This document shows positions 26,501 to 64,000 of a DNA stretch of 64,000 bases, piece by piece. The notes under the pieces were generated by a model. It was given only the letters and a program-made list of their open reading frames with translations, was not told where the DNA came from and did not search any database. The translations under genes and the position numbers were made by a program. Positions within the stretch are counted from its first letter, which is position 1. The number at the start of each line of letters is the position of its first letter. This DNA is from a virus: positions 1 through 64,000 of the IMG/VR virus record IMGVR_UViG_3300034061_000981; one strand, given 5' to 3'.

Positions 26501-29500
26501 ACACTCCTAATACTTCTGTGATTAACACTAGTATTGATAGTGTTGACTGGACAGTGAAGCAATTAACAAATACACCAATTGACGTTACTGATATTATCTA
26601 CACTGGTAGCAAATATATAATCACAACAACTAATAATGCAACACCTGTATTAATAAGTGACAACGGAGTTGAATGGGATTCTACAATAACGTATGTCCCT
26701 ATAAGCAATGTAGCACCTCTTCTAATGAATGGAGTTGGGTATACCAATGGTACGTATATTGCAGTTGGAAATAATATAATTTCATCTACTGATTTAAGTA
26801 CATGGAGAGAAGTGTTTAAGTTCCCTAATGATGGATTAACCAACACATTCAATGATGTTGCATATGTTAATACAGGTGGATTTAATGGCTTTGTTGCAGT
26901 TGGTTTAGGTCAACGTTATGTAACAGGGCAAGCTACAAATACAGCAATTATATACTTTAGTGTACCTAATTATACCAATTGGATTGATTCTCAATTCGAT
27001 GGCACATTATATGGTTTAAACGCAATAGCCTCAAATGGACAAACAATAGTTGCTGTTGGTAATAATGGTATAATTTACACTAGTTTTAATGCACGTGTAT
27101 GGAACCAACAAACATCATCTGTTGTTAATAACTTGAATTCTATCATCTGGGATAATTATAATAATTTATTTGTTGTTGTGGGTGACAACGGTACAATAAT
27201 TACAGCCCCTATTGATGGTTCAATATGGACAGCCAGTACTAGCGGGACTACAGAAGACCTTACAAGTGTAGTATATAATAATGTTGATGGTGAATATGTT
27301 GCAGTGGGATTTAATAATACGGTAGTAAGAACCAATGACGCAGAATCTGCATGGACTAACTCTGCTAATTTTGAAACATTACCTACCGTATATACAGTAC
27401 AAGGTGATGCATTTACAGCTGGTTATGGTCCAGAAGAAATGGTCCCGGGCGTAGTAACAGATACATTAACCATGATTACTGCCACACGTCCAGGTACAAA
27501 TTGGGATGAAACTATATATCAACATGTTGGTTACAGTGTAGTCACCCGTGAGATTACCCCTACGTCAGATACGCAAACAGAATATAGTTTTGCTAACACA
27601 GTAGATACGCCGGCTCAGTTATCTGTATTTGTAATTAATCGCAATACAGGATTAAGTACCAGTATCTATGATGGAATTGACTACACTGTTGATTGGGTAA
27701 ATAAACTTGTTACACTGGATACTCCGATAACTTATGTACCAGCTGGAGTTTCAGATAAATTAAGAATTGATGTATATGAAACTGGTAACGGAGATCAATT
27801 AGTTAAAGCTAATACTGAAACAGATCCAATACGTGATAACGTTGTAACTGGATTCCAAGAGATATATGTTAATGCTAACTACACTGCTGGTATATATCAA
27901 GGTTCAGGTGTAATTAGACCTACAACAGAACCACAGGAAGTTACTGCAATTGCAACAAGCGAAATTACAGACGCTATCACATGTGTAAGCGTAGAAGATT
28001 TTGTATTGAATGGTGTTATCACCTTTAGCGGAGCGGTGTTTGGTAATATTATAGAAGACCAAGTTTACTATGTGAAAACCATTAGTTACGTATCCAATAG
28101 AATTACTATATCAGAAGTTTATAATACTAGTACAGGTACTGCGGGAGCCACATTCTCATTAAGTACAGCAACTGGTAGTATGAAAGCTATTATTCAAGTT
28201 GGTACAGGTACTGTTTGGACTCCACCAATCGTATATCATAATGGTGTTAAATTAGTGTTGGGTCATACTGCTACTGTAACAAGAACTAGAAGTAGTACAA
28301 ATACTGTTACTACTAATACTACCGGTGATTTAGTACCAAATCAAAAAATTAAATTTAGTAATACAATATTTGGTGGCATTGTTCCTTTACAAACATATTA
28401 TATAAAACAGATTATTGATGGTAATGAATTTACTATTTCTGAAACAGAAGGCGGACCTGTATTTGCATTGACAACTGCAACCGGTGGAGCCATGTTTGTG
28501 TCTGCTGATTATGCTATTGGAATAGCTGAGAATGGTATAAGTGCATCACTGTTGCTAGCAAACGAGTATGACATTTCAGTTGATTATCTGACATATACAT
28601 TGTTCGGTGAAACAGTACCATTACAGTATGGTTATACTATACCCGAAACACAATTAATTACAGCAGACGGTACAGTAGGACCATTTAGCTTAGCCAATTA
28701 TGTAAGTGGAAACAATCCATTAAATGCTATTGTTGAAGTTAATGGATTGCGTGTAGACCCGTCAACATATACAATTGATCCTATTGCAAATGAGATTGAG
28801 TTTAATTTAGGTGATGAACCTGCAAACAGTGATACTATTGCTGTAACTAGTTACAATCTAACTGACCGTCAATATTTCAACACGCAAGTTGTAGATACTA
28901 CCGGTGTAACAGTATCAGCAATTAGTAATATTAATAATGCTATTACAGAAACAAGTACCGTTATAATTTGTTCTGGAACTAATAGTGCTAATAATTCTAT
29001 TGTTTGTAACACTACTGCTAATTTAGTAGATGGTCAAGAAATTATATTCAAATCAAATGTACCGAACTCTGACTATGAAGGAAGTGGAATAGATACTACC
29101 GGAAAAGTTTATTATATTCTTGATGCTGATGTAAGCGGAACTGAATTTACTATTTCTGAAACTCCTAACGGTACTGTAGTTGCTGTAGCTACAGTTACAG
29201 CTAATATGGTTGGATATGTAGGTGGCAATTTAGCAATACGAGTTACAACTGCTAATTCAAATAACTTGGTTGATAACGATTTTATTCGTATTGATGGAGT
29301 GTTAGGGTCAATTCAATTAAACAACAATACCTATTATGCTAAGGTAATATCTGCTACTGAGTTTTATTTGTACTCGGAACCATATAATCCTGCATTGGGA
29401 ACGGTTAACTATCCTGTAACATTTGCATCAACATATGTGTCTGGTGGTTATGTTTGGTTAGATCAAACCTTTATTATTACCGATACTATAACGATTGCTA

Positions 29501-37933: not shown

Positions 37934-39327
37934 TGAGTAGCGAACAACAAAGAATTAAAGACATTAAGATTAAGATTGAGAACGAAGCAGGTCCTACATT
38001 TTGTCTTGCTAAATGGCATCACGTAACTATGTATTTGCAATCAGGTGAAACACATAGTTGTTATCACCCACAACCTCATAAAATTCCATTAGAAGAATTG
38101 AAAGATAATCCTTCAGCACTACACAATACACAATTCAAAAAAGATGAACGCAAAATGATGCTGGAAGGTGAAAAGCCAACAGGTTGTCAATATTGCTGGA
38201 ACATTGAAGCAATGGGCCCAGATTATATTAGTGATAGACACATTCGTAATGCTAGTATTTTTACAGAAGAACGCTATGAACAAACAACTAAAGGTGCATG
38301 GAATCAAAATATTAATCCAGAATACTTAGAAATCAACTTTGGTAACGAATGTAATTTCAAGTGCGGTTACTGTCATCCAAAATATTCAACTAGCTTTTAC
38401 AATGAGATTAAGAAGCATGGCCCTGTTACTACAGTAAAGAACCATCGTTGTGATGTTGATTGGATGACATTGTATCAGCGTGAAGAAGAAAACCCATACG
38501 TTGATGCATTCTGGGAGTGGTGGCCCGAACTACGCAAGACATTGAATATTATGCGTGTAACCGGTGGCGAACCTACGATGCACACTAGTACATGGAAATT
38601 GTTAAAAGAAATTGAACAAGATCCTATGCCTTGGTTAGAGTTGAATATAAACAGTAACTTAGGTACTAAGACTGCATTGGTTGAGAAACTAGCGCATAGT
38701 GTTAAAAAATTAGTAGACGATAAAAAAATTCGTGCATTCAAACTATTCACTAGCTTAGATACATGGGGTCCTAAGGCTGAATATATTCGTACAGGATTAG
38801 ATTTAGAATTGTGGGAAAAGAATTTCCATACGTATCTACAGAACACCGACAGCCCAATCACGTTTATGATTACTTTCAATATCTTTAGTGTTACTACATT
38901 TAAAGAATTCTTGGGTAAGTTTTTAGAATGGCGCAAACAATATGGTTGGTATGATGACCGAAAAGAACATCGTGTTCGGTTTGATACCCCTTACTTACGT
39001 GACCCTATTCAATACGATATGAACATTTTACCTAAGGACGAATTTATGCCTTACATGCGTGACGCATTATCATTCATGGAAGCTAATGTAGATGACAATC
39101 GTGCCGACGCATTTACTACTATTGAGTTTGAAAAATTCAAGCGTGTAGTTGACTACATGAATGAAACTAAATACTCAGACACAAAGTTAATTGAAGGTCG
39201 TAGAGATTTCTACAATTGGTTCAATGAATTAGATGAACGCAGGGATACAGATATGTTATCAGTTTTTCCTGAGTATATGAATTTTTATAGACTTTGCCAA
39301 GAAGTTAATCAATTGAATCCAAAATGA
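37933..39327 (+). CDS. Radical SAM enzyme with N-terminal twitch/SPASM-like Fe-S domain
   Basis: FCLAKW...HSCYHP...CQYC precedes CNFKCGYC and TGGEP. Start refined to the TAATG overlap. Confidence 0.9.
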   Translation: MSSEQQRIKDIKIKIENEAGPTFCLAKWHHVTMYLQSGETHSCYHPQPHKIPLEELKDNPSALHNTQFKKDERKMMLEGEKPTGCQYCWNIEAMGPDYISDRHIRNASIFTEERYEQTTKGAWNQNINPEYLEINFGNECNFKCGYCHPKYSTSFYNEIKKHGPVTTVKNHRCDVDWMTLYQREEENPYVDAFWEWWPELRKTLNIMRVTGGEPTMHTSTWKLLKEIEQDPMPWLELNINSNLGTKTALVEKLAHSVKKLVDDKKIRAFKLFTSLDTWGPKAEYIRTGLDLELWEKNFHTYLQNTDSPITFMITFNIFSVTTFKEFLGKFLEWRKQYGWYDDRKEHRVRFDTPYLRDPIQYDMNILPKDEFMPYMRDALSFMEANVDDNRADAFTTIEFEKFKRVVDYMNETKYSDTKLIEGRRDFYNWFNELDERRDTDMLSVFPEYMNFYRLCQEVNQLNPK

Positions 39328-40598
39328 GCAAGAAAAAAACTAAAATAACAGTTGAAGATTTATCTACTAGTAAGACACTATGTGTTGTGCCATGGATACA
39401 TATCCACACTAATCCTAGTGGCATTGCTACTCCTTGCTGTATCGCAGAATCGTGCACCAAACCCGAAGGTGTAGGAAACGCACGTGAACAATCATTGATG
39501 GAAATTGTTAATTCTGAATCAATGAAACAATTGCGTTTAGATATGTTAGCCGGAGTTAAAAATTCTGAATGTACCAAATGTTATGAACATGAGGATCAGG
39601 GTATAAAAAGTTTTAGAAATATGATTAACGATGAATTTAGTCATCACTATGATGCTATGAATTCAACAAAGAAAGATGGATCACTCAAAGAATTTAAAAT
39701 GAGATACTTTGATATCCGTTTTAATAACATTTGTAATTTTAAATGTAGAACATGTGGTTCAGGATTTAGTACTCAATGGGAACAAGAAGATTTAAAAAAT
39801 AAAGTTTGGAATGCAAAAGTCATTCCAAAGAATGATAATAAAAAATTCTTAGCAGAGGTAGTGGATCAAATTCCAAATATGGAAACAGCATACTTTGCCG
39901 GTGGCGAGCCACTAATTACCGAAGAACATTATATTCTACTAGAAGAAATGATTCGTAGTGGCAAGACTGATATCAAACTAAGATATAATACTAACTTAAG
40001 CAATCTTAAATTTAAAGACAAAGACCTGTTGTCCTTGTGGAAACACTTTGAAAAGGGTGTAGATGTTTATGCAAGTATTGACCATTACGGTGAACGTGCA
40101 GAATATATTCGTCACGGAACTGATTGGGGTGTAGTTGAATCTAACTTCAACTTAGTTAAAAAAACATCCTTCATAAAACTACACATGAATACCGTATTAA
40201 GTGTATTCAACGTTTTAACTATAAATGAATTCTATCAGTATCTATATGATAATAATATGTACTCAAACAAAGATTCAGTATATATGTTATATAATATGTC
40301 AACTCCGGAATTTTTAGCATGTCATATATTGCCACCTGATTTAAAAATCAAAGCTAAAGAAAGTTTAGAACAGACTGTTAAGTTTTTAAAATCTAAAAAA
40401 TTTAAAGTACACCAAATAAAACAGATAACAGATGCTATTCCTTGGGCTATGTCTAAGGATTCTTGGGAACAACAAAAAATGAATTTTAGAAGTGAAGTCA
40501 AAAGATTAGATAAAATTAGAGATGAAAACTTTAAACAGACATTTCCTGAATTAGCTATGTTATTAGAACCCGAATACAAAAGATTGTGGCCAGTATGA
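39324..40598 (+). CDS. Radical SAM enzyme with N-terminal twitch/SPASM-like domain
   Basis: LCVVPW...PCC...CTKC, CNFKCRTC and AGGEP. Confidence 0.9.
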   Translation: MSKKKTKITVEDLSTSKTLCVVPWIHIHTNPSGIATPCCIAESCTKPEGVGNAREQSLMEIVNSESMKQLRLDMLAGVKNSECTKCYEHEDQGIKSFRNMINDEFSHHYDAMNSTKKDGSLKEFKMRYFDIRFNNICNFKCRTCGSGFSTQWEQEDLKNKVWNAKVIPKNDNKKFLAEVVDQIPNMETAYFAGGEPLITEEHYILLEEMIRSGKTDIKLRYNTNLSNLKFKDKDLLSLWKHFEKGVDVYASIDHYGERAEYIRHGTDWGVVESNFNLVKKTSFIKLHMNTVLSVFNVLTINEFYQYLYDNNMYSNKDSVYMLYNMSTPEFLACHILPPDLKIKAKESLEQTVKFLKSKKFKVHQIKQITDAIPWAMSKDSWEQQKMNFRSEVKRLDKIRDENFKQTFPELAMLLEPEYKRLWPV

Positions 40599-41845
40599 AC
40601 AAAGATTATCTATCCAAGATGAACAAAAATTATTTATTAAACGAGAGCAAGACTTTTTGCATGTTCCCTTGGGTACATTTAAATGTGACACCAAAAGGTG
40701 ATATCTATCCTTGCTGTAGTAACGACTACACAAAACCATTTGGTAATACAAAAGAAACTTCATTAAAAGAAGCATTCAACAGTCCGCAAATGAAACAGTT
40801 GCGTTTGGACATGTTAGCTGATAAGAAAAATGATATATGTAACTTTTGTTATAAACACGAAGAAGCAGGACCTCATTCATTTAGAAACTATAGCAAAGAA
40901 CAATTTGCTAAACACTATGATGAAACAATTCCTACAACACTAGATGACGGAACTGTTCCCGAATTCAAAATGCATTATTTTGATATTCGTTTCAGTAATA
41001 TTTGTAACTTTAAATGTAGAACATGCGGGTCAGAGTTTAGTAGTCAATGGGGAGCAGAGATGCGAGCCAATCACGATCCAAAACATCCTATTGTTATTCA
41101 TGCCGATGAAAAGGGTAATCTATTACGTGAAGTATTGGAACAAGTAGAACATATTGATTTAGCATACTTTGCTGGTGGTGAACCTACATTGACCGAAGAA
41201 CATTATATAATGCTTGAAGAAATGATTCGTAAAGGTCGTAGTGATATTGTTCTACGATACAACACTAACGCTAGTAACATTAAGTTCAAAGACTATGACT
41301 TACTAGATATGTGGAAGTACTTTAAAAAGATTGAATTGAGTTGTAGTATTGACCATTATGGTGAAAGAGCAGAATGGTTACGTCATGGAACTGATTGGGG
41401 TGTAGTAGAGTCCAATCTATTAAAGTTCCGTGAACTAGATTATGTTAGTTTTCAAATGAATACGGTATTCAGCATCTTTAACTATAGTACAATCGGTGAG
41501 TTCTATCAGTATTTAAAAGATAAGAATATTATCCGCAGAGAAGATTGGTATCATAGTTTGTACTTGGCTGTACACCCTAGCTATTATTCTGGTAAGAGTT
41601 TGCCCAAAGAATTAAAAGTAGAAGCCGCAGAAAAGGCATTGGCTTGGGCAAAGGCTAATGAAGGTGATGGTACATCACTAAGTAGATTAGTGACTGATGC
41701 TGTAAACTTTGCGGCAGATGATGATACTTGGACTGAAAATAAAGAAACATTCTTTTTACATACAGGTTCAGGAGATAGAATTCGAGGTGAAAGTTTCTGG
41801 AAAACGTTTCCTGAATTAAATAAATTACGTGATTTAACGGAGTAA
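40595..41845 (+). CDS. Radical SAM enzyme with N-terminal twitch/SPASM-like domain
   Basis: FCMFPW...PCC...CNFC, CNFKCRTC and AGGEP. Start refined to the ATGA overlap (alternative ATG at 40619). Confidence 0.9.
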   Translation: MNKDYLSKMNKNYLLNESKTFCMFPWVHLNVTPKGDIYPCCSNDYTKPFGNTKETSLKEAFNSPQMKQLRLDMLADKKNDICNFCYKHEEAGPHSFRNYSKEQFAKHYDETIPTTLDDGTVPEFKMHYFDIRFSNICNFKCRTCGSEFSSQWGAEMRANHDPKHPIVIHADEKGNLLREVLEQVEHIDLAYFAGGEPTLTEEHYIMLEEMIRKGRSDIVLRYNTNASNIKFKDYDLLDMWKYFKKIELSCSIDHYGERAEWLRHGTDWGVVESNLLKFRELDYVSFQMNTVFSIFNYSTIGEFYQYLKDKNIIRREDWYHSLYLAVHPSYYSGKSLPKELKVEAAEKALAWAKANEGDGTSLSRLVTDAVNFAADDDTWTENKETFFLHTGSGDRIRGESFWKTFPELNKLRDLTE

Positions 41846-41847
41846 TA

Positions 41848-43119
41848 ATGCAAGATTCAATTGTTGTAGAAAATTTAGTAAAACATGGTAAACATTTTTG
41901 TGTGTTACCCTGGGTCCACTTTCATTCATGGCCAGATGGTCGAGTGATGCCATGTTGTGTTGCTGACAGCGGAATGCCTGTAGCTGAAATAAAAGAAGAA
42001 GAATCAATCATCCAAATGATGAATAGTGATGACTTCAAAAAGATTCGTTCAGCTATGCTTAACGATGAACCAGTAGAAGCGTGTAAGCGTTGCTATGACT
42101 TAGAGTTAATGGGTACATGGACAATGCGTCAAAGTCACAATAAGCGCAAAGGTCTTGAATACGTCAAAGAAATTAGTGAAATAACAAGTGATGACGGTAC
42201 CATTAGTGACTTTAAAATGAAATACATGGACTTACGTTTTAGTAACATGTGTAATATGAAATGTCGCAGTTGTGGCCCTGGTTGCTCAAGTCTATGGGCA
42301 CAAGAATTTTTAGACGAACGAGGTGAAGAAGTATTTGAACAATACTTCAAAACAAAAAAGATTGTTATTAACAAAGCAGATGAAGTTGGATTCTTAGCTA
42401 AACTAAAACCATACTTGAAAGACGTTACTGAAGTATATTTTGCTGGTGGTGAAATTATTATTACTCCTGAACACTATGAGTGTTTAGACTATTGGATTGA
42501 TAACGGATTGAACGAACAGATTGAGTTAACATACACAACTAACTTTAGCTCATTGAAGTACAAAGACAAAGACTTAATCGGTTATTGGAAGAAGTTTCCC
42601 AAGCTCAAAATTTGGGCTAGCTTAGACGGCATGGGCGAGACAGCAGAATTGATTCGTAAAGGTACTGACTGGGATCGTATTGTTAAAAACATCAAAGCAG
42701 TTAAAGAACAAGTGCCACATGCTGAGTTCCAAATCACTCCTACAATTAGCATCTGGAATGTGTTCCACTTCCCTGACTTTTTTGACTACATGATTGACAA
42801 TGGGTTCATTGATACTAAGAGTAGCCCGCGTTTTAATCTAGCAACTAATCCATGGTACGCAAACATTATGATTCTTCCTGTGTCTGTTAAGCGCAGACTA
42901 GCTGAATTATATCGTGTATATCAGAACAAGTATAAAGACAACCAAGATATCTATAACGGCTTTAAGATGATTATCTACAATTTGACAGTTGGTGATGAAA
43001 ACAAAGGTGGTATCTTAGAATTTAAACAGTTCAACGATGAGTTGGATCAATTTAGAGATGAGAAGTTTGAGGACATTTGTCCAGAAATTAAAGAGGTATA
43101 TGAATGGGCAAAAAGCTAA
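41848..43119 (+). CDS. Radical SAM enzyme with N-terminal twitch/SPASM-like domain
   Basis: FCVLPW...PCC...CKRC, CNMKCRSC and AGGEI. Confidence 0.9.
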   Translation: MQDSIVVENLVKHGKHFCVLPWVHFHSWPDGRVMPCCVADSGMPVAEIKEEESIIQMMNSDDFKKIRSAMLNDEPVEACKRCYDLELMGTWTMRQSHNKRKGLEYVKEISEITSDDGTISDFKMKYMDLRFSNMCNMKCRSCGPGCSSLWAQEFLDERGEEVFEQYFKTKKIVINKADEVGFLAKLKPYLKDVTEVYFAGGEIIITPEHYECLDYWIDNGLNEQIELTYTTNFSSLKYKDKDLIGYWKKFPKLKIWASLDGMGETAELIRKGTDWDRIVKNIKAVKEQVPHAEFQITPTISIWNVFHFPDFFDYMIDNGFIDTKSSPRFNLATNPWYANIMILPVSVKRRLAELYRVYQNKYKDNQDIYNGFKMIIYNLTVGDENKGGILEFKQFNDELDQFRDEKFEDICPEIKEVYEWAKS

Positions 43120-55365: not shown

Positions 55366-57254
55366 TGAGAATCTCCCGGGAGTTAATGGCAGAGCATACG
55401 TTTGTTGCTTTCCCTGAAATAAAACAATATGAAAATAATATACACTTTATTGATGCAACCATTGGTAGAAGAGAAATATTTTTAACTAGAGACACTGTTG
55501 AAATAGTAAATGAAATAAAACAAGCATATAGTCAAGGAAAAACTAAATTTTTCTTTTATATGTTTACCGAAGCGGTGATGTCCCATATTGTTTTTAAAGT
55601 ACACAGGATAGCTAAGTTACTTCAAGATATTATACCTTCTGAAAATTTCTTTTATTTGTCTGGGGCAATTAACGGTGAAGAAGCGTATGAAAAGGTTGCA
55701 CAACGACACAATTTTACTTTTAGAATAAGCATATTGTCTGCGTCAATGTTCCATCATTACTTAAAAAAAACAACATTAAGTTACGAAATTGATTACAACA
55801 TATTTGAAGTTAAAGTAAAACCTAAAAAGTTTCTTTGTTTCAATAAACTTGAACGAGAACAACGTTTAAGATTAATTGAACGAATGTTGAAAAATAATTA
55901 TGTTGATTTGGGATATTATTCATTTGAATCATCTAATAGTGATAATTTTAATATAATTGCAAACCGATTAGACCCAACACGATTTCCTTATATAAAAGCA
56001 AATAAACATAAGTTCCCGTTAAGATTAAATATAAAAGAAGATCGTACTAACCCAGTTAATATTATACCGGAAGACTTAGACTATTTTAAGAACAGTTATT
56101 TTAGTATTGTAAATGAAACAATATTTTACGGTACTAGTAGCTCTAGGACAAATAATTTATCACATCAGCCCAATGCAGAGTATTCAAGTATATTTGTATC
56201 AGAGAAAACATTTAAGTGTTTGGCTCTAAAACATCCTTTTGTTGTTTTTGGCAGACCGGGTTTTATTAAAGGATTACATAAATTGGGATTCAAAACATTT
56301 AGTCCCTACATTGACGAATCATACGATGATATCGTGGATGACGATGAACGATTTAATAAAATCTTTAATGAAATAGATAGACTAATTAATTTAAGTGATG
56401 ACGAGTGGTTAGCTTTATTACAACACTTAGAACCTATAGTTGAATATAATCACGGTTTATTTTTAGATAAAGAGTTTCACGGTATAACTGAAAATCCAAC
56501 AAGGTTCTTTGCAGACATTAAACCAAAAAAACAATTAAAAACATTGAATGAAGTTCTATTAAAAAGTGATTATATAGAATTAATGCCAATTATTGAAATA
56601 AAAGATTGGTCAATGCAAACTAGAACATTGAACAGTGGAATAGTAGTAGAATATCCAACATATTTAGATGGTGGCGGATTAGAGATGGTTAATGAGTTAG
56701 TTAATGTAATTAAAACTACGGGTAAATCATCCTATGATAGGGGTTGTGAATGGTGTGCAGGTTTTGGTGTATTGGGCTTTGATGTTTTAGGACTAGGATT
56801 AGCAAAGCATATGGTCTTTACTGATTACTTTGCAGCCGCAATAGAAAACTGTTTGGCTACTGCTAGTAAAAACAACATAAGTGATAAAGTAACCGGGTAT
56901 ATCTCAGGTACCATCAGGGGCATACCAAATGAAAAATGGGATTTAGTTATCAGTAATCCACCTCATGTATTTGATAAAGAATATTTTATAGAGACATTAC
57001 CGGGCGGTAAAGAAAATAATCATAACATAGATAATTCTTGTAGATTAATTGTTGACCAAAACTTTGCAATACATAAAGAATTCTTCAAAAACATTAAAGA
57101 AAAATTAACTAAAGATGCTGATGTATATCTCATTGAAGCATTAAAAGATGGTTTTATCAATGAATGGGCAGAACAGGGTGGATTATATGTACATGCAACC
57201 TATCCTATAACTGCACTACCGCATGGACAAATATTCCATTTCAAGTTGAAATAA
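55365..57254 (+). CDS. Fusion protein: TEK-family glycosyltransferase (copy 6) plus class I SAM methyltransferase
   Basis: N-terminal FLCFNK..R..R, YFSIVNET, VSEKTFK, HPF and DESYD; C-terminal (from about 56613) EWCAGFGVLG and DLVISNPPH. Confidence 0.75.
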   Translation: MRISRELMAEHTFVAFPEIKQYENNIHFIDATIGRREIFLTRDTVEIVNEIKQAYSQGKTKFFFYMFTEAVMSHIVFKVHRIAKLLQDIIPSENFFYLSGAINGEEAYEKVAQRHNFTFRISILSASMFHHYLKKTTLSYEIDYNIFEVKVKPKKFLCFNKLEREQRLRLIERMLKNNYVDLGYYSFESSNSDNFNIIANRLDPTRFPYIKANKHKFPLRLNIKEDRTNPVNIIPEDLDYFKNSYFSIVNETIFYGTSSSRTNNLSHQPNAEYSSIFVSEKTFKCLALKHPFVVFGRPGFIKGLHKLGFKTFSPYIDESYDDIVDDDERFNKIFNEIDRLINLSDDEWLALLQHLEPIVEYNHGLFLDKEFHGITENPTRFFADIKPKKQLKTLNEVLLKSDYIELMPIIEIKDWSMQTRTLNSGIVVEYPTYLDGGGLEMVNELVNVIKTTGKSSYDRGCEWCAGFGVLGFDVLGLGLAKHMVFTDYFAAAIENCLATASKNNISDKVTGYISGTIRGIPNEKWDLVISNPPHVFDKEYFIETLPGGKENNHNIDNSCRLIVDQNFAIHKEFFKNIKEKLTKDADVYLIEALKDGFINEWAEQGGLYVHATYPITALPHGQIFHFKLK

Positions 57255-57282
57255 ATTAAGTTTTATAGTATAATTTTAATAG

Positions 57283-57290
57283 ATTAAATA
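57283..57290 (+). promoter_or_regulatory. Putative internal late promoter (ATTAAATA)
   Basis: TAAATA core in the only sizeable gap of the enzyme cluster, followed by TAAGGAG and a TTG start. Confidence 0.45.
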
Positions 57291-57314
57291 CTACTTGAAG
57301 TAAGGAGATATTGT

Positions 57315-59597
57315 TTGGATTCAAACACCGATTCGAAGGTAGTTCTAAAAGAAAGACCCACAGCAGATGTTGCAGATGAACGTCATCAAGCGATGATGGA
57401 TGCCATTGCGCCCTATGCTAAAAAATCTATACAGAAAAATTTAACTCCAGTATATGTAGATTATAAAACACGCAACACAAAAATGGTATTGGTATTGTGC
57501 CCTGAATGGTCACCTTACATGCCTCCGTTTTCGTTAGCAAAACTATCCGGAATTGCTAAAGCTGCCGGATATGAAACAAATATTATAGATTTGAATGTTA
57601 GAGCATACAATGCTCATAAAAACGATTGGAGACCAAATAACAAATTACCCTTTAGGTTGTGGGATCCAGCCGCAAGTTGGCACTGGTTGGGTGACACGTA
57701 TTCCAAAGATATTCACCCTGTACTAGAACCATTACTCTCACAAGCTATTGATGAAATTGTTGCAATGAAGCCTGACGTTGTTGGCTTTAGTGTTTATTAC
57801 ATTAGTGAAGAACCCACTAAGTGGATGTGCCAAGAGTTAAAGCGTAGACTACCTAATGTAAAGATTGCAGTAGGCGGCCCTAATGTACATAAACATTGGT
57901 TTGCAATTCACGATTACTATGACTATGTTATTGTAGGTGAGGGTGAAAACAATCTATTAGTCATGCTTGATGAAATTGAAGAAAAGATTGAAGTTCAATA
58001 TCCACGAGTATTAACACAACCTGAAGACCAGCGTATCAATATTAACAATTTGCCGATGCCAGACTATGAAAGTATTGACTTCTCACAGTATGAGATGCCA
58101 AATGGTATCAACAGTGAAATTAGTCGAGGTTGTACAGCTAAATGTACATTCTGTGAAGAAACACACTTCTGGAAATATCGTCAACGTCAAGCAGTTGATT
58201 TGATTACAGAGATTGAGTGGTTATATTACAATAAAGGTACTGATGTTATTTGGTTTATTGATAGTCTTATTAATGGTAATATCAATGAACTTAGAGCATT
58301 TGCATTAGCACTCAAAAATAAAAATTTAGAGGTTAAATTTGCAGGTTATGCACGACATGATGGTCGTATGGATAAAGCATACTTGAAAGATTTAGCAGAT
58401 GGTGGTTGTTTGCGATTTAACTTTGGTAGTGAATCCGGAAGTCAAAAAGTATTAGACGATATGGCTAAGGGTGTGACTATTAAAGAGATGGAACAAAACT
58501 TTATTGATTGTAAAGAATTGGGTATAGGAAGCGATACTAACTGGATTGTAGGATTCTCCACTGAGGATTATCAAGACTACTCAGATACAATGACATTACA
58601 ATGGCGTATGCGTGAAAATATTAGTAACATGGGTTTAGGGGTAGGCTTTGCAGTAGGTCCAGAAACTATTGTAGGACAGAATCCACATAGATTTAATGTT
58701 AGCTATCATAAGTATCAGAATCATTGGATTACTAATGATTTATCTAAAGGTGGTACACACATTATGATGCGTGTGAAAAATATTCACATATGGGCTGACT
58801 TAATATCACATTGCAAAGAAGGTCCGGCAACCACATATCCAGTTCGTTTCGCACTAGCACAAAAGCATTATAAGATTAAATTTAATGATCCGCTATGCCG
58901 TAAAGAGATGAATTATGAAAAATTTGATTATGATATCATTCCACCGGTAGATCCTAACAATAAATTTGCAAATCAGCTTGTGAATGAAATATGGCCATTA
59001 TTAAGAAATATTTGGAGAGCAAGAGGCGGATATGAAGCAGAGATACTTTTTAATCCTGAACTTGATTTAGTAGAATTTGGATCGCAATTTGGTCCGGGTA
59101 TGTTTAATGCCGTATATAAGTTTAAGATTAGTGATGATGGAAAGTGGGAAGCAGACTTTGATATGCACTTTAATCAACATATTGATAACCCAGAAGATAA
59201 TAGATTACCTCCTCCAGAAGGTCGTAGGGGTCCTTTCTATGCACAAGATTATTCAAGGGCACAATCTAATACAGTTAAACGTGCTAGAAGATTAGCAAAA
59301 CCAAAATGGTCAGATGAAAAAGGTCGTAGTGGTCAAGACTTTACTGATTTATTAAATGAAGAAGAATATTTAAATAAAAATATAGATTTTACCTTTGACC
59401 TACATTATGTAGGCACTGGTGATTGGGGTAACTATGCTGATTATGAAGTAAAAGTATCTGATAAGAAACGTGATGCTATTCCTGAAAAAGAAGTAATGTA
59501 TATACCTAAAGTACCTGTGTCCCCAGTAGTTCCTGAAATTGCTACAATTGATATTTCTCAGATTAAAAAAAGTAGAAGACCATTGTTTCCAGTATGA
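57315..59597 (+). CDS. Cobalamin-binding radical SAM enzyme, copy 2, with long C-terminal extension
   Basis: PPFSLAKL, PDVVGFSVY, VGGP, GEGE, SRGCTAKCTFC and FGSESGSQKVLDDM.KG. TTG start with a strong ribosome-binding site. Confidence 0.88.
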   Translation: MDSNTDSKVVLKERPTADVADERHQAMMDAIAPYAKKSIQKNLTPVYVDYKTRNTKMVLVLCPEWSPYMPPFSLAKLSGIAKAAGYETNIIDLNVRAYNAHKNDWRPNNKLPFRLWDPAASWHWLGDTYSKDIHPVLEPLLSQAIDEIVAMKPDVVGFSVYYISEEPTKWMCQELKRRLPNVKIAVGGPNVHKHWFAIHDYYDYVIVGEGENNLLVMLDEIEEKIEVQYPRVLTQPEDQRININNLPMPDYESIDFSQYEMPNGINSEISRGCTAKCTFCEETHFWKYRQRQAVDLITEIEWLYYNKGTDVIWFIDSLINGNINELRAFALALKNKNLEVKFAGYARHDGRMDKAYLKDLADGGCLRFNFGSESGSQKVLDDMAKGVTIKEMEQNFIDCKELGIGSDTNWIVGFSTEDYQDYSDTMTLQWRMRENISNMGLGVGFAVGPETIVGQNPHRFNVSYHKYQNHWITNDLSKGGTHIMMRVKNIHIWADLISHCKEGPATTYPVRFALAQKHYKIKFNDPLCRKEMNYEKFDYDIIPPVDPNNKFANQLVNEIWPLLRNIWRARGGYEAEILFNPELDLVEFGSQFGPGMFNAVYKFKISDDGKWEADFDMHFNQHIDNPEDNRLPPPEGRRGPFYAQDYSRAQSNTVKRARRLAKPKWSDEKGRSGQDFTDLLNEEEYLNKNIDFTFDLHYVGTGDWGNYADYEVKVSDKKRDAIPEKEVMYIPKVPVSPVVPEIATIDISQIKKSRRPLFPV

Positions 59598-60184
59598 ACT
59601 CGGTAGAACATTTTGAGAAAATAGTTGCAGAATATTACAATGCACCATATGCGATAGCAACTGATTGTTGCACACATGCAATTGAATTGTGTTTGCGACT
59701 TACTGAGCCTGTGTATGTTAAATGCCCTAATCATACATATCTCAGTATTCCAATGACGTTCAGTAAGTTAAAACTTCAGTGGAATTTCACTGACGAAAAA
59801 TGGCAAGACTACTACACTATTACCAATACTAATATTATAGATGCCGCCGTTTATTGGAAAAAGAATAGCTATATCAGAAACACATTGATGTGCTTGAGTT
59901 TTCAATATAAGAAACATTTGAACATTGGTCGTGGTGGTATGATTCTACTTGACAATACAGAACAGTATGAACAATTACTAAAGATGCGATATGACGGTAG
60001 GTTAGACAACATACCCTGGGCAGAGCAAGACATTGATATAATAGGATATCATTATTACATGACTCCTGAAAATGCTGATATCGGTATTGAGAAATTTAAG
60101 ACAGCAAGTATAACAGAACCTAAACAATGGTCATATAAAGATTATCCTGATTTAAAGAAAATGAAAGTGTTCAATGCTAAGTAA
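59594..60184 (+). CDS. Shortened DegT/DnrJ/StrS-family PLP aminotransferase-like protein
   Basis: FEKIVAEYY...AIATDCCTHA, IIDAA, SFQYKKHLNIGRGG (Schiff-base Lys region) and GYHYYM; only 196 aa. Confidence 0.75.
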   Translation: MNSVEHFEKIVAEYYNAPYAIATDCCTHAIELCLRLTEPVYVKCPNHTYLSIPMTFSKLKLQWNFTDEKWQDYYTITNTNIIDAAVYWKKNSYIRNTLMCLSFQYKKHLNIGRGGMILLDNTEQYEQLLKMRYDGRLDNIPWAEQDIDIIGYHYYMTPENADIGIEKFKTASITEPKQWSYKDYPDLKKMKVFNAK

Positions 60185-61145
60185 AAACGAATGGGATCCA
60201 CTACAATCAGTTATTGTAGGTATTGCTGATGATGCTAAGATTCCTAAACTTGATACTAGTTTACGTTGTGTAAACTATGCAGACTTACAGTCTACAATAC
60301 AAGTTGGTAACTATCCGCAACAAGTTATTGACGAAGCAAACGAAGATTTAAATAATTTAGTATCATTCTTAGAGGGTGAAAGTGTCACAATATACAGACC
60401 TAACACAAAGTTTGTGCCTGAGTATTATAACTACTGCCCACGTGATACTGTGTTAGTGCATGATGACTTAATATTAACTACACCTAATCCTTTACGAGCA
60501 AGACAAACAGAACATCTTGCTATGTTAGATACACTAAAAGAACACGGTAGTGTTATTACTAAATTGCATTCTGGTCATGAAAGTCTGTACAATACAAATT
60601 GTGTAGGTAATCCAAATATACTTGCATTGAATGAGACTGAGCCTGCGTTTGATGCGGCAAACATATTGCGTTCAAATGATGATTTGTTTTATCTAGTAAG
60701 TAATAGTGGTAATAAAGCTGGCGCTAAATATCTGCAAGAATTATATCCTGATAAGAAGGTTCATACGATTGAAGGTGTGTATAGTTATATGCACTTAGAT
60801 AGTACAATTGCATTATTGCGTGAGGGATTGATGTTACTGAATCCTGCACGTATTAAGAGTATTGAACAACTACCCAAACCATTGCAATCATGGGATGTTA
60901 TTTGGGCGCCCGAGCCAGTTGATATTGGTCATTACCCGGGATACTGCAATGCTAGTACATGGGTAAGTATCAATTTGTTTAGTGTTAATCCTAACTTAGT
61001 TATAGTTGAAGAACACCAAAACAACTTGCGTAGTGAATTAGAAAAATATAATATAGAATGTGCTATGTTACCAATGCGTCACGCACGAACACTGGGAGGA
61101 TGCTTTCATTGTGTAACACTAGATTTAATTAGGAATCATGTATGA
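60174..61145 (+). CDS. Amidinotransferase (inosamine-phosphate/glycine amidinotransferase family)
   Basis: NEWDPL, YCPRD, FDAAN, SGN..G, HLDST and GGCFHCVTLD; the Asp-His-Cys triad is intact. Confidence 0.9.
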   Translation: MLSKNEWDPLQSVIVGIADDAKIPKLDTSLRCVNYADLQSTIQVGNYPQQVIDEANEDLNNLVSFLEGESVTIYRPNTKFVPEYYNYCPRDTVLVHDDLILTTPNPLRARQTEHLAMLDTLKEHGSVITKLHSGHESLYNTNCVGNPNILALNETEPAFDAANILRSNDDLFYLVSNSGNKAGAKYLQELYPDKKVHTIEGVYSYMHLDSTIALLREGLMLLNPARIKSIEQLPKPLQSWDVIWAPEPVDIGHYPGYCNASTWVSINLFSVNPNLVIVEEHQNNLRSELEKYNIECAMLPMRHARTLGGCFHCVTLDLIRNHV

Positions 61146-62914
61146 AAGAAAAATGGAAAAGAGGTCATTTTGGAAGATTCTGGGACCTTAATGAGTTTAA
61201 AAAATTTGATTATGTTCGTCAACCCATTACTGCTGAAGAAGTAGCTGAGTGGGAATCACAGGGCTATGACCATGTTAAAAGTTTTACTGGTCAAATGTAT
61301 GACAATAGAAACCCTATGCCTGATTGGATACAAACCTTTAAGGGTCTTTTTCTTACGTATAAAAATATGACATTTACTTTCTATAAGATGAGTACATTAG
61401 AAATAATGCCAGAGCACTCAGATCATTATAGAACGTATATAAAAATGTTTGATGCTAAAAGTGAAAATGTTCATCGTATTTTAGTAATGCTTGAAGATTG
61501 GAAACCGGGTCATTATTTAGAAATTGATGGGGTTGGGATTACCAATTGGATTGCAGGAGATTACTTTATGTGGCGCGCCGATTGTAAACATGCCGCCGCA
61601 AATATAGGCATAGAAGATAGGTATACATTACAAATAACATGTGAAGAAGTTGAAATTACTGACACATGGAATACGTTACATTGGTATAATATTCCCGATA
61701 TGATCTCTAGGGATAGTTCTTATCTATATTATATGGATCGCATTTTAAGTTTTATACCAAAGGATATTAGTACTAATCCAATGTTCATTTATATGTTTAA
61801 CGAAAACATAAATGAATTAGAAAATATAACACATGATGACTTTGCTATAAATGAATTAAACAATAAAGGTTTAACAATTTATTTAACGGAACCTTTATGT
61901 AGCTATCTAGTAGGAGCCCCACAATGGCATCCACCTAAAGGAACTAAACATAATATGATGTTTTACTCTGAGTTTGAAGGTTTTGAACGCCCCCAACAAT
62001 TTAGAGCAGATGAATTGGATAGCATTGAAAGATATGTAATTAGAAATCAATTAACAAATGTAAAAGTTTATACATGTGACTATGATGCAAAAAAATGGTA
62101 TCCGTACTATTCAGATTTTATGCAAATTGGTTATGATGATTTGTTTGTAAAATCTGTATTACCTAAAAAGATTTACAATCCAGAAGTAGAACCTAATTTT
62201 ACTAAAAAATTTATTTGTTTAAATTGGAGATATACTCCACATAGACAAATGCTAGCGGCATATGTCGCTCCCCTATCAAGTCATGTCAGTTGGTATTTTA
62301 GAGGCGAGTTGGGAATTGTGGGACGGCAATATTGGTGTGATATATTTAACATTCAAATGCGTGACCCGGAAGTGTTTGGTAAATTAATAGCCGGTGTCGA
62401 ATATTTAAATATACATTCTCCTATGAATGTTGATTTAAATCTTACAGAACCAGTTACTATATTACATTCATATTTTAGACATTGCATGCCTAATGGCACA
62501 CTATTTGACCATACTAAAGGTGAATTAGATGAAAATAAGATGGAAGAATCATATAGAGATGTGTTTTGCGATATTGTTACTGAATCAAGATTTGCACAAC
62601 CAACCGGCAATTATAGCGAAAAAACGTTTCACCCTATGTGGTTTAAGAAGCCCTTTGTGTTGGCTGCACCTCCTAACACATTAAAGTTATTAAAAGAGCA
62701 TGGCTTTAAAACATTTAGTGATTTTTGGGATGAGTCATATGATTCAATTACTATACACGAAGAACGTTTATTAAAGATTTTTGAAGTAATTGATTTTATT
62801 AATAATAAATCAATAGAAGAACTACAAGAAATGTATGTTCAAATGAAACCAATATTAGAACACAATTACAATTTAATAAAAGAAAAATTACCACCAATTG
62901 GGATACAAAAATGA
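61142..62914 (+). CDS. Fusion protein: 2OG-Fe(II) oxygenase-like domain plus TEK-family glycosyltransferase (copy 7)
   Basis: N-terminal PEHSD...DWKPGH...HAAANIG..RYTLQIT (HxD..H..R pattern); C-terminal FICLNWRYTPHR, DIVTES, YSEKT, KPF and DESYD. Confidence 0.75.
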   Translation: MKEKWKRGHFGRFWDLNEFKKFDYVRQPITAEEVAEWESQGYDHVKSFTGQMYDNRNPMPDWIQTFKGLFLTYKNMTFTFYKMSTLEIMPEHSDHYRTYIKMFDAKSENVHRILVMLEDWKPGHYLEIDGVGITNWIAGDYFMWRADCKHAAANIGIEDRYTLQITCEEVEITDTWNTLHWYNIPDMISRDSSYLYYMDRILSFIPKDISTNPMFIYMFNENINELENITHDDFAINELNNKGLTIYLTEPLCSYLVGAPQWHPPKGTKHNMMFYSEFEGFERPQQFRADELDSIERYVIRNQLTNVKVYTCDYDAKKWYPYYSDFMQIGYDDLFVKSVLPKKIYNPEVEPNFTKKFICLNWRYTPHRQMLAAYVAPLSSHVSWYFRGELGIVGRQYWCDIFNIQMRDPEVFGKLIAGVEYLNIHSPMNVDLNLTEPVTILHSYFRHCMPNGTLFDHTKGELDENKMEESYRDVFCDIVTESRFAQPTGNYSEKTFHPMWFKKPFVLAAPPNTLKLLKEHGFKTFSDFWDESYDSITIHEERLLKIFEVIDFINNKSIEELQEMYVQMKPILEHNYNLIKEKLPPIGIQK

Positions 62915-63669
62915 AAGAAAAAATATTATTAATTGCAGGCTGTAGTCATGCCGCCGGAAGTGAGATTGACGGGAGTGAGGATAGTGAATACAATAGACAC
63001 CACTGTTTTGGTAGTGAGTTAGCATCAAAATTAGGTCGTAAACCTATCAATATGTCAATTGCAGGCAATACTAATAGTGGTATAGCAAGAAGTATACTTA
63101 AGTGGTTTTCTGCAAATTATAACCCTAAAAAGATAGATGTTATAGTATTAGTAGCTTGGACTGACAGTACACGAATGGAAGCCCCTGTAACAGAATTATG
63201 TAATCCTCCCCAGCCTTGTTACGCTAATTGGCTCGATATAACCTGTTCTAACTTTTTTAGGTCAACTATGGGTTATGAAGGTGATAAAAACAAACCCGGC
63301 GAAGTTGAAAGAATAAAAAGCATACAAAGATTTATAGCAGAAAATGAACAAATGGTTGAAATTATGTCTATAAACTATGTATTACAAATACAATATTTTT
63401 TACAATCAATAAAAGTAAATTATTTGATGTGTAATACAATGCCTATATTTATGGACCATACCAAGCATTTGGGATATTATTTAAATCTTATTGATGCGAC
63501 TAAATATTATGGTATATACAACAGTGAAGAAGCATTTTTTCCTAAATATAGAAAAGAAGGCTATGTCAATCCAAAAGCAAAATATTGGCATCACGATGAA
63601 ATCCCACATCAACTGTTTGCAGAAGAATTATACAACTTTATACAGGAGAACAAAAATGTTCATAGTTAG
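62911..63669 (+). CDS. SGNH/GDSL-like hydrolase or O-acyltransferase, copy 3
   Basis: AGCSHAAG, NMSIAGNTNSGI, VAWTD..R.E and C-terminal WHHDEIPH. Confidence 0.6.
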   Translation: MKEKILLIAGCSHAAGSEIDGSEDSEYNRHHCFGSELASKLGRKPINMSIAGNTNSGIARSILKWFSANYNPKKIDVIVLVAWTDSTRMEAPVTELCNPPQPCYANWLDITCSNFFRSTMGYEGDKNKPGEVERIKSIQRFIAENEQMVEIMSINYVLQIQYFLQSIKVNYLMCNTMPIFMDHTKHLGYYLNLIDATKYYGIYNSEEAFFPKYRKEGYVNPKAKYWHHDEIPHQLFAEELYNFIQENKNVHS

Positions 63670-63754
63670 ATGGTTTAAAAATTTAGTTAGAGAATACAAG
63701 TACCGCAAGCGCATTAAAGAATTACGCAAACGAGATCCATTTATTTACAAATGA
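63656..63754 (+). CDS. Small basic 32-aa protein (MFIVRWFKNLVREYKYRKRIKELRKRDPFIYK)
   Basis: CAGGAG ribosome-binding site at 63643-63648; the stop overlaps the next ATG (ATGA). The track start at 63491 is probably too long. Confidence 0.65.
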   Translation: MFIVRWFKNLVREYKYRKRIKELRKRDPFIYK

Positions 63755-64000
63755 ACTATATCGGTATAAGTGCAGGCTTCCATGATGCGGCCCTAAGCGT
63801 CATAGATAGTAACGGCAATATTGTCTTTGCTGGTCATAGTGAACGCTACAGCAAACAAAAACATGACAAACATTTGTCAATGGGTATTGTTGAGGATGCG
63901 TTAACTTATTGTAACGATGAAGTTGAGATTCACTATTACGAACGTCCAGGGATGAAGTTTTTGCGACAATTACGTTCAGGTGAAAAGCCTAAACTATCTA
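63751..64000 (+). CDS. Carbamoyltransferase, NodU/CmcH/TobZ family (3'-partial)
   Basis: Manual translation gives MNYIGISAGFHDAALSVIDSNGNIVFAGHSERYSKQKHD...HYYERP, the family N-terminal signature. The frame is open to the window end. Confidence 0.88.
   Translation, partial: MNYIGISAGFHDAALSVIDSNGNIVFAGHSERYSKQKHDKHLSMGIVEDALTYCNDEVEIHYYERPGMKFLRQLRSGEKPKLS

Follow-up and report, generated by a model that had tools for sequence, protein, structure and literature searches.

What would a bacteriophage do with a DegT-type aminotransferase, an amidinotransferase and an O-carbamoyltransferase encoded almost side by side? The question is raised by the first 64 kb (hereafter the window) of a 107.6-kb virus contig with an estimated completeness of ~30% (IMG/VR record IMGVR_UViG_3300034061_000981), in which the genes from position 59594 onward make up the last part of a run of about 30 genes. 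A reading made from the nucleotides alone, referred to below as the sequence-only reading, had taken them for an aminoglycoside-like tailoring kit giving a product with guanidino and carbamoyl groups. These tailoring genes are co-oriented and overlapping, and the stretch is real, intact and widely conserved. It is best explained as the downstream tailoring sub-module of a cytoplasmic glycan island of ~30 genes, lying between tail and fiber genes and a giant protein with an array of glycosyltransferase (GT) domains. With a probability of roughly one half, we propose that this phage module aminates, guanidinylates and carbamoylates a sugar chain built in the cytoplasm of the infected cell. The enzyme families are already known; what is new is the phage setting, a minimal pyridoxal phosphate (PLP) enzyme, the fusions to domains of the GT-B fold and a very short open reading frame (micro-ORF).

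The StrB1-Type Amidinotransferase

The gene at 60174..61145 (+ strand) encodes a protein of 323 aa, a StrB1-clade amidinotransferase that depends on L-arginine. In a phmmer search against the PDB, StrB1 (1BWD) was matched at E 6.9e-63 over query residues 4-320 and chain residues 7-339, with further full-length matches to HsvA (9e-36), SxtG (2e-31) and AGAT (3e-30) and a bit score of 216 for StrB1 versus 104-127 for these three. No match was found in Pfam or NCBIfam. Residues C313, H207, D209, D91 and D160 align with C332, H227, D229, D108 and D179 of StrB1, while R226 sits at the spacing of AGAT R322, and none of the six (D91, D160, H207, D209, R226 and C313) varies among 24 phage homologs. 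As the sequence-only reading had noted, the aminotransferase and amidinotransferase genes overlap, the shared stretch being 11 nt.

Homologs 58-73% identical to the window protein are encoded in 61 viral loci from environmental phage contigs, and more than 6,700 metagenomic homologs were found at E<=1e-10, some of them on contigs of 330-480 kb. In a tree of 44 phage and 81 cellular amidinotransferases the former group together in a single clade (support 100), and a sequence from a Pseudobdellovibrionaceae metagenome-assembled genome (MAG) is their nearest cellular neighbor. Fusions of the amidinotransferase were also considered; the long forms are confined to the bacterial clade and carry domains like those of class II aminoacyl-tRNA synthetases, and as such are uninformative on the phage enzyme. 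Some viral contigs (L029-L031, around 6115 and 10001) carry two copies of the gene ~4 kb apart, each 64-66% identical to the window protein and each with its own oxygenase- or GT-like neighbor.

A Half-Size DegT-Like Protein

The overlapping gene at 59594..60184 (+ strand) encodes a protein of 196 aa in the DegT/DnrJ/EryC1/StrS lineage, here called miniDegT. The earlier label of DegT aminotransferase holds for the PLP motifs and for the Pfam profile DegT_DnrJ_EryC1 (PF01041), matched at 55.4 bits with a cut-off of 19.8, but the match covers only profile positions 164-237 of 360 and the protein is half-size. In place of the two-domain DegT architecture of ~360-400 aa the large domain alone is modeled, the C-terminal small domain being absent, as are ~55 large-domain residues from the interval that separates conserved blocks two and three. 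The PLP-binding set is present, comprising the Schiff-base lysine K107 (in the motif SFQYKKH, aligned with the Schiff-base lysine of AtmS13), the pyridine-nitrogen aspartate D83, T27 and the aromatic Y49.

When the island proteins were searched by tblastn against 62 related loci, a miniDegT ORF of 193-210 aa (~195) was found in 52 of them, and 37 sequences with 41-78% identity to the window copy share 39 invariant columns, among them T27, Y49, D83 and S102-F103-x3-K107. The constant size and the conservation in 52 loci rule out a truncated pseudogene; we take miniDegT to be a family of its own, made up of minimal PLP enzymes, and not a truncation. A profile search of 1.84 billion representatives gave 842 members at E<=1e-10, or 233 at the stricter E<=1e-30; most have 190-240 aa.

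The AlphaFold2 (AF2) model of miniDegT has a pLDDT of 94.6, and its best Foldseek matches are GDP-perosamine synthase, AtmS13, CalS13, ArnB and AHBA (3-amino-5-hydroxybenzoate) synthase, with TMq of 0.69-0.79. The model spans ~40% of the target chains (TMt 0.39-0.43), corresponding to the PLP-binding large domain, and the nearest structural neighbors are nucleoside diphosphate-4-keto sugar aminotransferases. A homodimer was predicted with an ipSAE of 0.84 versus 0.01 for the best of three controls, the invariant residues forming the interface, the three runs agreeing in 100% of contacts and the partner pLDDT being at least 93. In calibration, 20 of 30 solved homomers and 1 of 23 monomers came up to the ipSAE mark, and because DegT dimers have already been solved the pass may show likeness and not proof. 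MiniDegT is a putative aminotransferase.

The Oxygenase/GT-B Protein and Links to Glycosyl Transfer

The gene that follows the amidinotransferase encodes a protein of 590 aa, for which searches of Pfam, NCBIfam and PDB sequences gave no match and whose two domains were assigned by structure (AF2 model, pLDDT 87.6). Residues 1-171 (61142..61654, + strand) form a 2-oxoglutarate (2OG)/Fe(II) oxygenase domain of the double-stranded beta-helix fold, with VIA Z scores of 13.2 to PiuC (9qn0) and 11.8 to P4H/EF-Tu (4iw3), PHD also among the VIA matches and P4H returned by Foldseek; H92-x-D94, H150 and R160 can be read from the translation. Residues ~180-587 (61655..62914, + strand) form a GT-B-like glycosyltransferase domain, with VIA Z scores of 9.6 to T4 beta-glucosyltransferase (1c3j), 9.3 to EXT1/2, 8.9 to an alpha1,3-fucosyltransferase (5zoi) and 8.9 to the GT of phage HY126, a DNA arabinosyltransferase. 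As these scores are middling, the fold alone is assigned. By BLASTP the GT-B domain is related to the window ORFs at 44074, 50187 and 55365 and to others, so that paralogs lie across the island. In many loci the oxygenase and GT-B halves are separate genes, with a stand-alone oxygenase of ~167 aa beside the amidinotransferase.

The T4 and HY126 enzymes among these neighbors speak for a rival reading, DNA hypermodification, in which the GT-B paralogs and the carbamoyltransferase would act on a hydroxylated or hydroxymethylated base (giving 5-carbamoyloxymethylcytosine or arabinosyl-5-hydroxycytosine) and the amine and guanidine would be placed on DNA-linked sugars. The scores, however, lie within the range given by any GT-B, and the island's approximately ten GT-like domains together with the giant GT array far exceed known DNA glycosylation.

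Fusions to the same GT-B family recur. In the window both the oxygenase and a methyltransferase-like protein are joined to it, and it is the partner in 10 of 13 long miniDegT forms, the others being joined one each to an oxygenase domain, to GTP cyclohydrolase I and to PF08795. The repeated fusions indicate that the tailoring enzymes work together with glycosyl transfer, tying miniDegT to glycosylation. The GTP cyclohydrolase I fusion is a metagenomic protein of 445 aa (P0133), the lone fusion pointing from sugars to pterin or deazaguanine chemistry; as an enzyme of the deazaguanine/pterin pathway its partner can be counted in favor of the DNA reading.

The Carbamoyltransferase and Its Micro-ORF

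An O-carbamoyltransferase of the NodU/CmcH/TobZ family, 497 aa in length, starts at 63751 on the + strand and passes the end of the window at 64000 to finish at contig base 65244 (L003:5752-7245), with only the first 83 codons inside the window. Both Pfam domains are present, Carbam_trans_N at 123.1 bits and Carbam_trans_C at 164.4 bits (the Kae1-like and YrdC-like domains), and the PDB matches are NovN (9s2t, E 5e-51), GdmN (8e-44) and TobZ (2e-36), with the HD, HHLSHA, GPRALGNRS and NTS motifs aligning to NovN. Two of these three solved relatives, NovN and TobZ, act on sugars. Its membership in the kit is borne out by the domains but is optional, since it is found in 27 of the 62 related loci. 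The sequence-only reading had also placed it in one sub-operon with a B12 radical SAM gene; the two do lie in the same run, but three genes between the amidinotransferase and the carbamoyltransferase had gone unmentioned, those for the oxygenase/GT-B protein, a DUF6071 protein and the micro-ORF.

The micro-ORF (63656..63754, + strand; 32 aa) occupies the 81-nt interval between the DUF6071 gene and the carbamoyltransferase, with its own Shine-Dalgarno sequence and a stop codon overlapping the carbamoyltransferase start (ATGA). By tblastn it was found in all 27 carbamoyltransferase-carrying loci and in none of the remaining related loci. The C-terminal half of the micro-protein is basic and ends in PFIYK, and with 135 synonymous and 26 non-synonymous differences in the last 17 codons and nearly invariant residues, these 17 residues are, on the codon evidence, under strong purifying selection. 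A Pfam search with the micro-protein gave chance-level rows only. In two of three fetched cyanobacterial carbamoyltransferase loci there is an ORF of 39-54 aa with a basic patch and a membrane helix, ending in APFIYTLF; the phage micro-protein has the basic patch and the PFIY but lacks the helix. No PFIY-type micro-ORF was found beside the carbamoyltransferases of the Pseudomonas, Burkholderia and actinomycete loci. The micro-protein may be a small, SxtK-like partner of the carbamoyltransferase. A regulatory leader peptide would also fit, because the C-terminal half is invariant and the stop lies on the next start.

Conservation of the Module

A recurring gene order was seen in approximately 30 loci, running from a nucleotide-sugar dehydrogenase through the methyltransferase-like protein, the B12 radical SAM enzyme, miniDegT, the amidinotransferase, the oxygenase/GT-B protein, in some cases DUF6071, and the carbamoyltransferase to the giant glycosyltransferase-array protein of 1,896 aa that closes it. 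The amidinotransferase is most tightly coupled to the oxygenase/GT-B protein or a part of it (59 of the 62 loci) and to miniDegT, while DUF6071 (24 of 62) is, like the carbamoyltransferase, among the less constant members. The B12 radical SAM gene lies directly upstream of miniDegT in ~35 related loci, and small loci exist with the amidinotransferase, oxygenase and GT-B alone. The Pseudobdellovibrionaceae MAG (L067:7943-11020) carries a cassette of miniDegT, a GT-B-like protein and the amidinotransferase flanked by housekeeping genes (ThiL-like, PilZ, TetR and PLD).

The module is also present in a cultured phage, the T4-like cyanophage Synechococcus phage S-SCSM2R, where miniDegT, the oxygenase and the amidinotransferase lie among glycosyltransferases. 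Its genome paper assigns an 'AHBA synthase', an 'inosamine amidinotransferase' and a radical SAM gene to antibiotic synthesis, with no experiment behind the assignment (PMC12801897). In a literature search this paper was the only one found to mention these genes in a phage, and no description of the phage module, of the mini-PLP family or of a guanidino-sugar glycoconjugate was found. A second amidinotransferase-like gene of S-SCSM2R, 22% identical and with the catalytic Cys kept, lies in ORF266-269 (L162:7354-10337) beside two 2OG oxygenases and KdsA/KdsB; no similarity was found between the oxygenase domain of the window and ORF267. ORF266 and ORF269 were reported in the virion proteome, with a distant amidinotransferase paralog and a 2OG oxygenase detected in virion preparations (PMC12801897).

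As such, a product bearing guanidino and carbamoyl groups, as the sequence-only reading had it, is reasonable, with three transferase families that have intact motifs and are conserved together among sugar genes; the amination step depends on the putative activity of miniDegT.

Cyclitol, DNA and Export Routes

The streptidine-like frame of that reading is not supported. Together with the contig, two relatives of 364 kb (100% complete) and 335 kb (95%) were searched, and no 3-dehydroquinate (DHQ)/2-deoxy-scyllo-inosose (DOI) synthase (PF01761), myo-inositol-1-phosphate synthase (PF07994) or Gfo/Idh/MocA dehydrogenase (PF01408) was found in the three genomes. The profiles gave matches in control genomes; the search covers the phage genomes, and the host may be a source of the cyclitol. 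In keeping with this, the dehydrogenase and SDR (short-chain dehydrogenase/reductase) enzymes of the island are of the nucleotide-hexose type. Membership in a streptidine or aminoglycoside pathway is rejected on the absent cyclitol core, and the same absence argues against scyllo-inosamine phosphate, the acceptor of StrB1, as the acceptor of the phage enzyme.

The same genomes bear on the DNA reading, which the sequence-only reading had kept by way of 5-hydroxymethylcytosine (5hmC) carbamoylation. In its favor, a phage 5hmC carbamoyltransferase has been published, which co-occurs with a thymidylate-synthase homolog bearing Asp177, that is, a dCMP hydroxymethylase (Yang et al., 2021, eLife, PMC8670742), and the proteins of the present island are all cytoplasmic. 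In the contig and in each of the two relatives, however, the sole thymidylate-synthase homolog (PF00303) is canonical, with PFNIASY (Asn177) and PCH (His147) in all three and the NCBIfam equivalog cut-offs passed. No C5 DNA methylase and no tRNA-guanine transglycosylase (TGT)/DpdA was found in these genomes, and a Tet/JBP search was also negative, though weakly so as it had no positive control. With a canonical thymidylate synthase and neither a C5-methylase nor a TGT, carbamoylation of 5hmC in DNA is unsupported, and DNA hypermodification is improbable.

A hydrophobicity scan (19-residue window, >1.6) found no membrane segment in 29 island proteins, which leaves the island without a flippase, polymerase, priming transferase or exporter. 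Two further readings are affected. The diffusible metabolite that the sequence-only reading had allowed for would be a guanidino/carbamoyl small molecule, antibiotic-like or signaling, released at lysis. A precedent is a Pseudomonas chlororaphis locus (L109:7753-16476) with genes for a heme-oxygenase-like oxidase, a StrB1-like amidinotransferase, a carbamoyltransferase and a class III aminotransferase, together with a formyltransferase-like protein and two copies of LysE, one on either side of the carbamoyltransferase. This probable small-molecule gene cluster recurs in similar form in approximately ten Pseudomonas, Burkholderia and Paraburkholderia loci, the identities in Pseudomonas and Burkholderia being 40% for the amidinotransferase and 33% for the carbamoyltransferase, and the label given by the S-SCSM2R authors points the same way (PMC12801897). 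Set against this are the complete relatives without cyclitol-core genes, an island with neither an exporter nor a membrane protein, its location in the structural region, and the many GT domains and GT-B fusions, which point to an oligomer or polymer. We keep the diffusible metabolite as an unlikely rival. The other reading, in which the infecting phage would remodel the host cell surface, either its lipopolysaccharide (LPS) or its capsule sugars, for instance as a bar to superinfection, gains from the LPS-type genes KdsA and KdsB beside the paralogous amidinotransferase/oxygenase pair in cyanophage relatives, and from a Gram-negative host, hinted at by a Porin_4 porin encoded on the contig. 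With no lipid-carrier priming transferase, flippase, polymerase or membrane protein among the 29 island proteins it would need host machinery, and is a long shot. A sugar chain built and tailored in the cytoplasm remains the preferred reading.

Genome Setting and Further Genes of the Island

The contig is that of a jumbo myovirus on sequence grounds, with phage-family matches for head, baseplate-hub and baseplate-wedge genes and a wedge protein ~33% identical to those of jumbo myoviruses of 350-490 kb (Serratia phage BF and Agrobacterium phage Atu_ph07). All window genes lie on the + strand. The ~30-gene run, with stop/start overlaps, follows a giant ORF and a few fiber-type ORFs, and includes several radical SAM/SPASM enzymes, two B12 radical SAM enzymes, an SDR epimerase, the nucleotide-sugar dehydrogenase and the methyltransferase-like protein. 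The giant ORF (11503-30729, + strand; 6,408 aa) stands after the baseplate genes and before the glycan island and probably encodes a giant fiber or adhesin. High in Thr, Asn, Ser and Gly and low in Lys, its product is a candidate glycan acceptor, although Thr/Ser richness is usual in fibers, which limits the weight of this composition. Downstream of the island, at contig 72631-74721 (L003:14632-16722), lie genes for the porin (Porin_4), an AhpC/TSA peroxiredoxin and a protein of the carboxymuconolactone-decarboxylase family.

The only gap in the run beyond a few bases (57255-57314) lies 5' of the B12 radical SAM gene and contains a promoter-like site, TTGAAA-17-TATAAT (57246..57274, + strand), matching at 11 of 12 positions. 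This may be the start of a sub-operon; the site is weak evidence, because such sites are no more numerous across the region than expected from shuffling. The B12-binding radical SAM enzyme itself (57315..59597, + strand; 760 aa), whose gene overlaps the miniDegT start by 4 nt, matches the Pfam B12-binding domain at 45.5 bits and Radical_SAM at 56 bits. It is probably a C-methyltransferase-type tailoring enzyme, judging from its best NCBIfam matches, which are B12 radical SAM methyltransferases, all far under cut-off. Three paralogous radical SAM proteins of ~420 aa are encoded at 39324-43119 (+ strand), with a SPASM domain that Pfam sets on the N-terminal side of the radical SAM core, and further radical SAM genes lie on both sides of this trio. 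The DUF6071 protein (62911..63669, + strand; 252 aa) is SGNH/GDSL-like, with a borderline Pfam score (26.9 bits, just under the cut-off of 27); its translation shows SGNH-type blocks, namely G-C-S-H, G-N and D-x-x-H, and it may be an esterase or acyltransferase.

These genes raise a last rival, modification of protein or peptide, in which lysine side chains or another protein amine would be converted to homoarginine-type groups, the oxygenase would hydroxylate residues and the radical SAM enzymes would have a virion protein or the micro-protein as their substrate. The oxygenase is closest to protein prolyl hydroxylases (P4H/EF-Tu and PHD), the best NCBIfam matches of the B12 radical SAM enzyme are methyltransferases of peptides made by the ribosome and modified after translation (RiPPs), SPASM radical SAM paralogs lie upstream, the basic micro-protein is conserved, and the virion preparations of S-SCSM2R contain the paralogous pair described above. 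On the other side, the tailoring domains are fused to GT-B and not to peptide-binding domains, the conserved order includes nucleotide-sugar enzymes, the relatives of miniDegT are sugar aminotransferases, the NCBIfam scores are those far-under-cut-off ones, and the micro-ORF tracks the carbamoyltransferase and not the radical SAM genes. Protein or peptide modification is thus very unlikely, and a modified sugar chain is again the reading carried forward.

Proposed Pathway and Target

Streptidine and bluensidine offer chemical precedents, the former being made by StsC followed by StrB1 and the latter bearing a guanidino and a carbamoyl group, one of each, on a single ring. By analogy, a keto-sugar would be supplied by the nucleotide-sugar dehydrogenase and SDR epimerase/dehydratase of the island, or by the host, and would be transaminated by miniDegT, putatively as a dimer. 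The amidinotransferase would then move the amidino group of L-arginine by way of Cys313 to the new sugar amine, giving a guanidino sugar and ornithine. The 2OG oxygenase/GT-B fusion might hydroxylate the unit and transfer or hold it, the B12 radical SAM enzyme might add a C-methyl group and the SGNH-like DUF6071 protein might handle esters, while in loci where it is present the NodU/TobZ-type enzyme, with the micro-protein, would O-carbamoylate a hydroxyl via carbamoyl-AMP. Given the fusions of tailoring domains to GT-B, and the absence from miniDegT of the domain closing the nucleotide-sugar pocket, it may be speculated that tailoring, docked on GT-B, acts on the growing chain and not on free nucleotide sugars.

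For the target of the glycan, virion proteins, and in particular a fiber, are the leading guess, as the island adjoins fiber genes and export functions are absent; the guess is a tentative one. The fullest form of the proposal, in which large environmental phages make, wholly in the cytoplasm, a cationic guanidino/carbamoyl glycan and place it on their own virion (probably on the giant tail fiber) by means of domain-minimized enzymes that are docked on GT-B or fused to it and act on the growing chain, with a micro-protein that the carbamoyltransferase could not do without, whether as partner or as sensor, is doubtful.

Several points weigh against a guanidinylated and carbamoylated sugar chain. 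To our knowledge no natural guanidino-sugar glycoconjugate has been described. With a whole domain missing, miniDegT could have a different PLP activity, or no activity at all. In ten loci the amidinotransferase, oxygenase and GT-B occur with no miniDegT within 10 kb, so that the amine for the amidinotransferase can come from another source. The GT-B assignment is made at a middling Z of ~9, and as the VIA list consists mostly of oxygenase matches the GT-B part was barely probed. The B12 and SPASM radical SAM enzymes and the P4H-like oxygenase also fit peptide modification, the sugar and the order of steps are drawn by analogy, and the virion target is a guess taken solely from gene position.

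Were the proposal correct, phages would make a positively charged guanidino sugar decoration of a kind not known in any glycoconjugate, making guanidino sugars a new class of glycoconjugate component. Amination would be carried out by a half-size PLP enzyme family with hundreds of unannotated members, and no fold-type-I enzyme would be smaller than this PLP aminotransferase of 195 aa. On the virion, a cationic carbamoylated glycan could alter adsorption to negatively charged cells, resistance to enzymes or recognition by defense systems. The present result would also correct the published reading of such genes as antibiotic synthesis genes, and the module is abundant and, since it is present in a cultured cyanophage, directly testable.

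Comparison with Known Systems

With StrB1 (1BWD) the phage amidinotransferase shares a full-length alignment, the catalytic Cys-His-Asp set and the two aspartates that bind the guanidinium; it differs in length (323 against 348 aa), in forming its own phage-only clade and in lying in a hexose/uronic-acid glycan island without cyclitol genes. In the case of the DegT/DnrJ/EryC1/StrS aminotransferases (GDP-perosamine synthase, AtmS13/CalS13, ArnB and StsC), miniDegT has in common the large-domain fold and the PLP residues, and a dimer of their type is predicted for it; it has 196 aa against ~370 aa and is often joined to a GT-B domain. The carbamoyltransferase shares both domains and the motifs of the NodU/CmcH/TobZ enzymes, but with 497 aa it is shorter than NovN, GdmN and TobZ (576-702 aa), having ~70 fewer N-domain residues, and is coupled to a micro-ORF; it scores 139.6 against the NodU equivalog, far under the cut-off of 1000.

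Among whole systems, the 5hmC carbamoyltransferase system is likewise phage-encoded and belongs to the same Pfam family, with its Asp177 homolog standing against the canonical Asn177 here (PMC8670742). The Pseudomonas cluster has LysE exporters beside its StrB1-like amidinotransferase, unlike the phage island, which is without an exporter. The S-SCSM2R set comes without a carbamoyltransferase, B12 radical SAM enzyme or micro-ORF, and its ORF305 ('AHBA synthase'), ORF309 ('inosamine amidinotransferase') and ORF308 (2OG oxygenase) are orthologs of miniDegT, the amidinotransferase and the oxygenase of the window, with identities of 54%, 57% and 32%, respectively.

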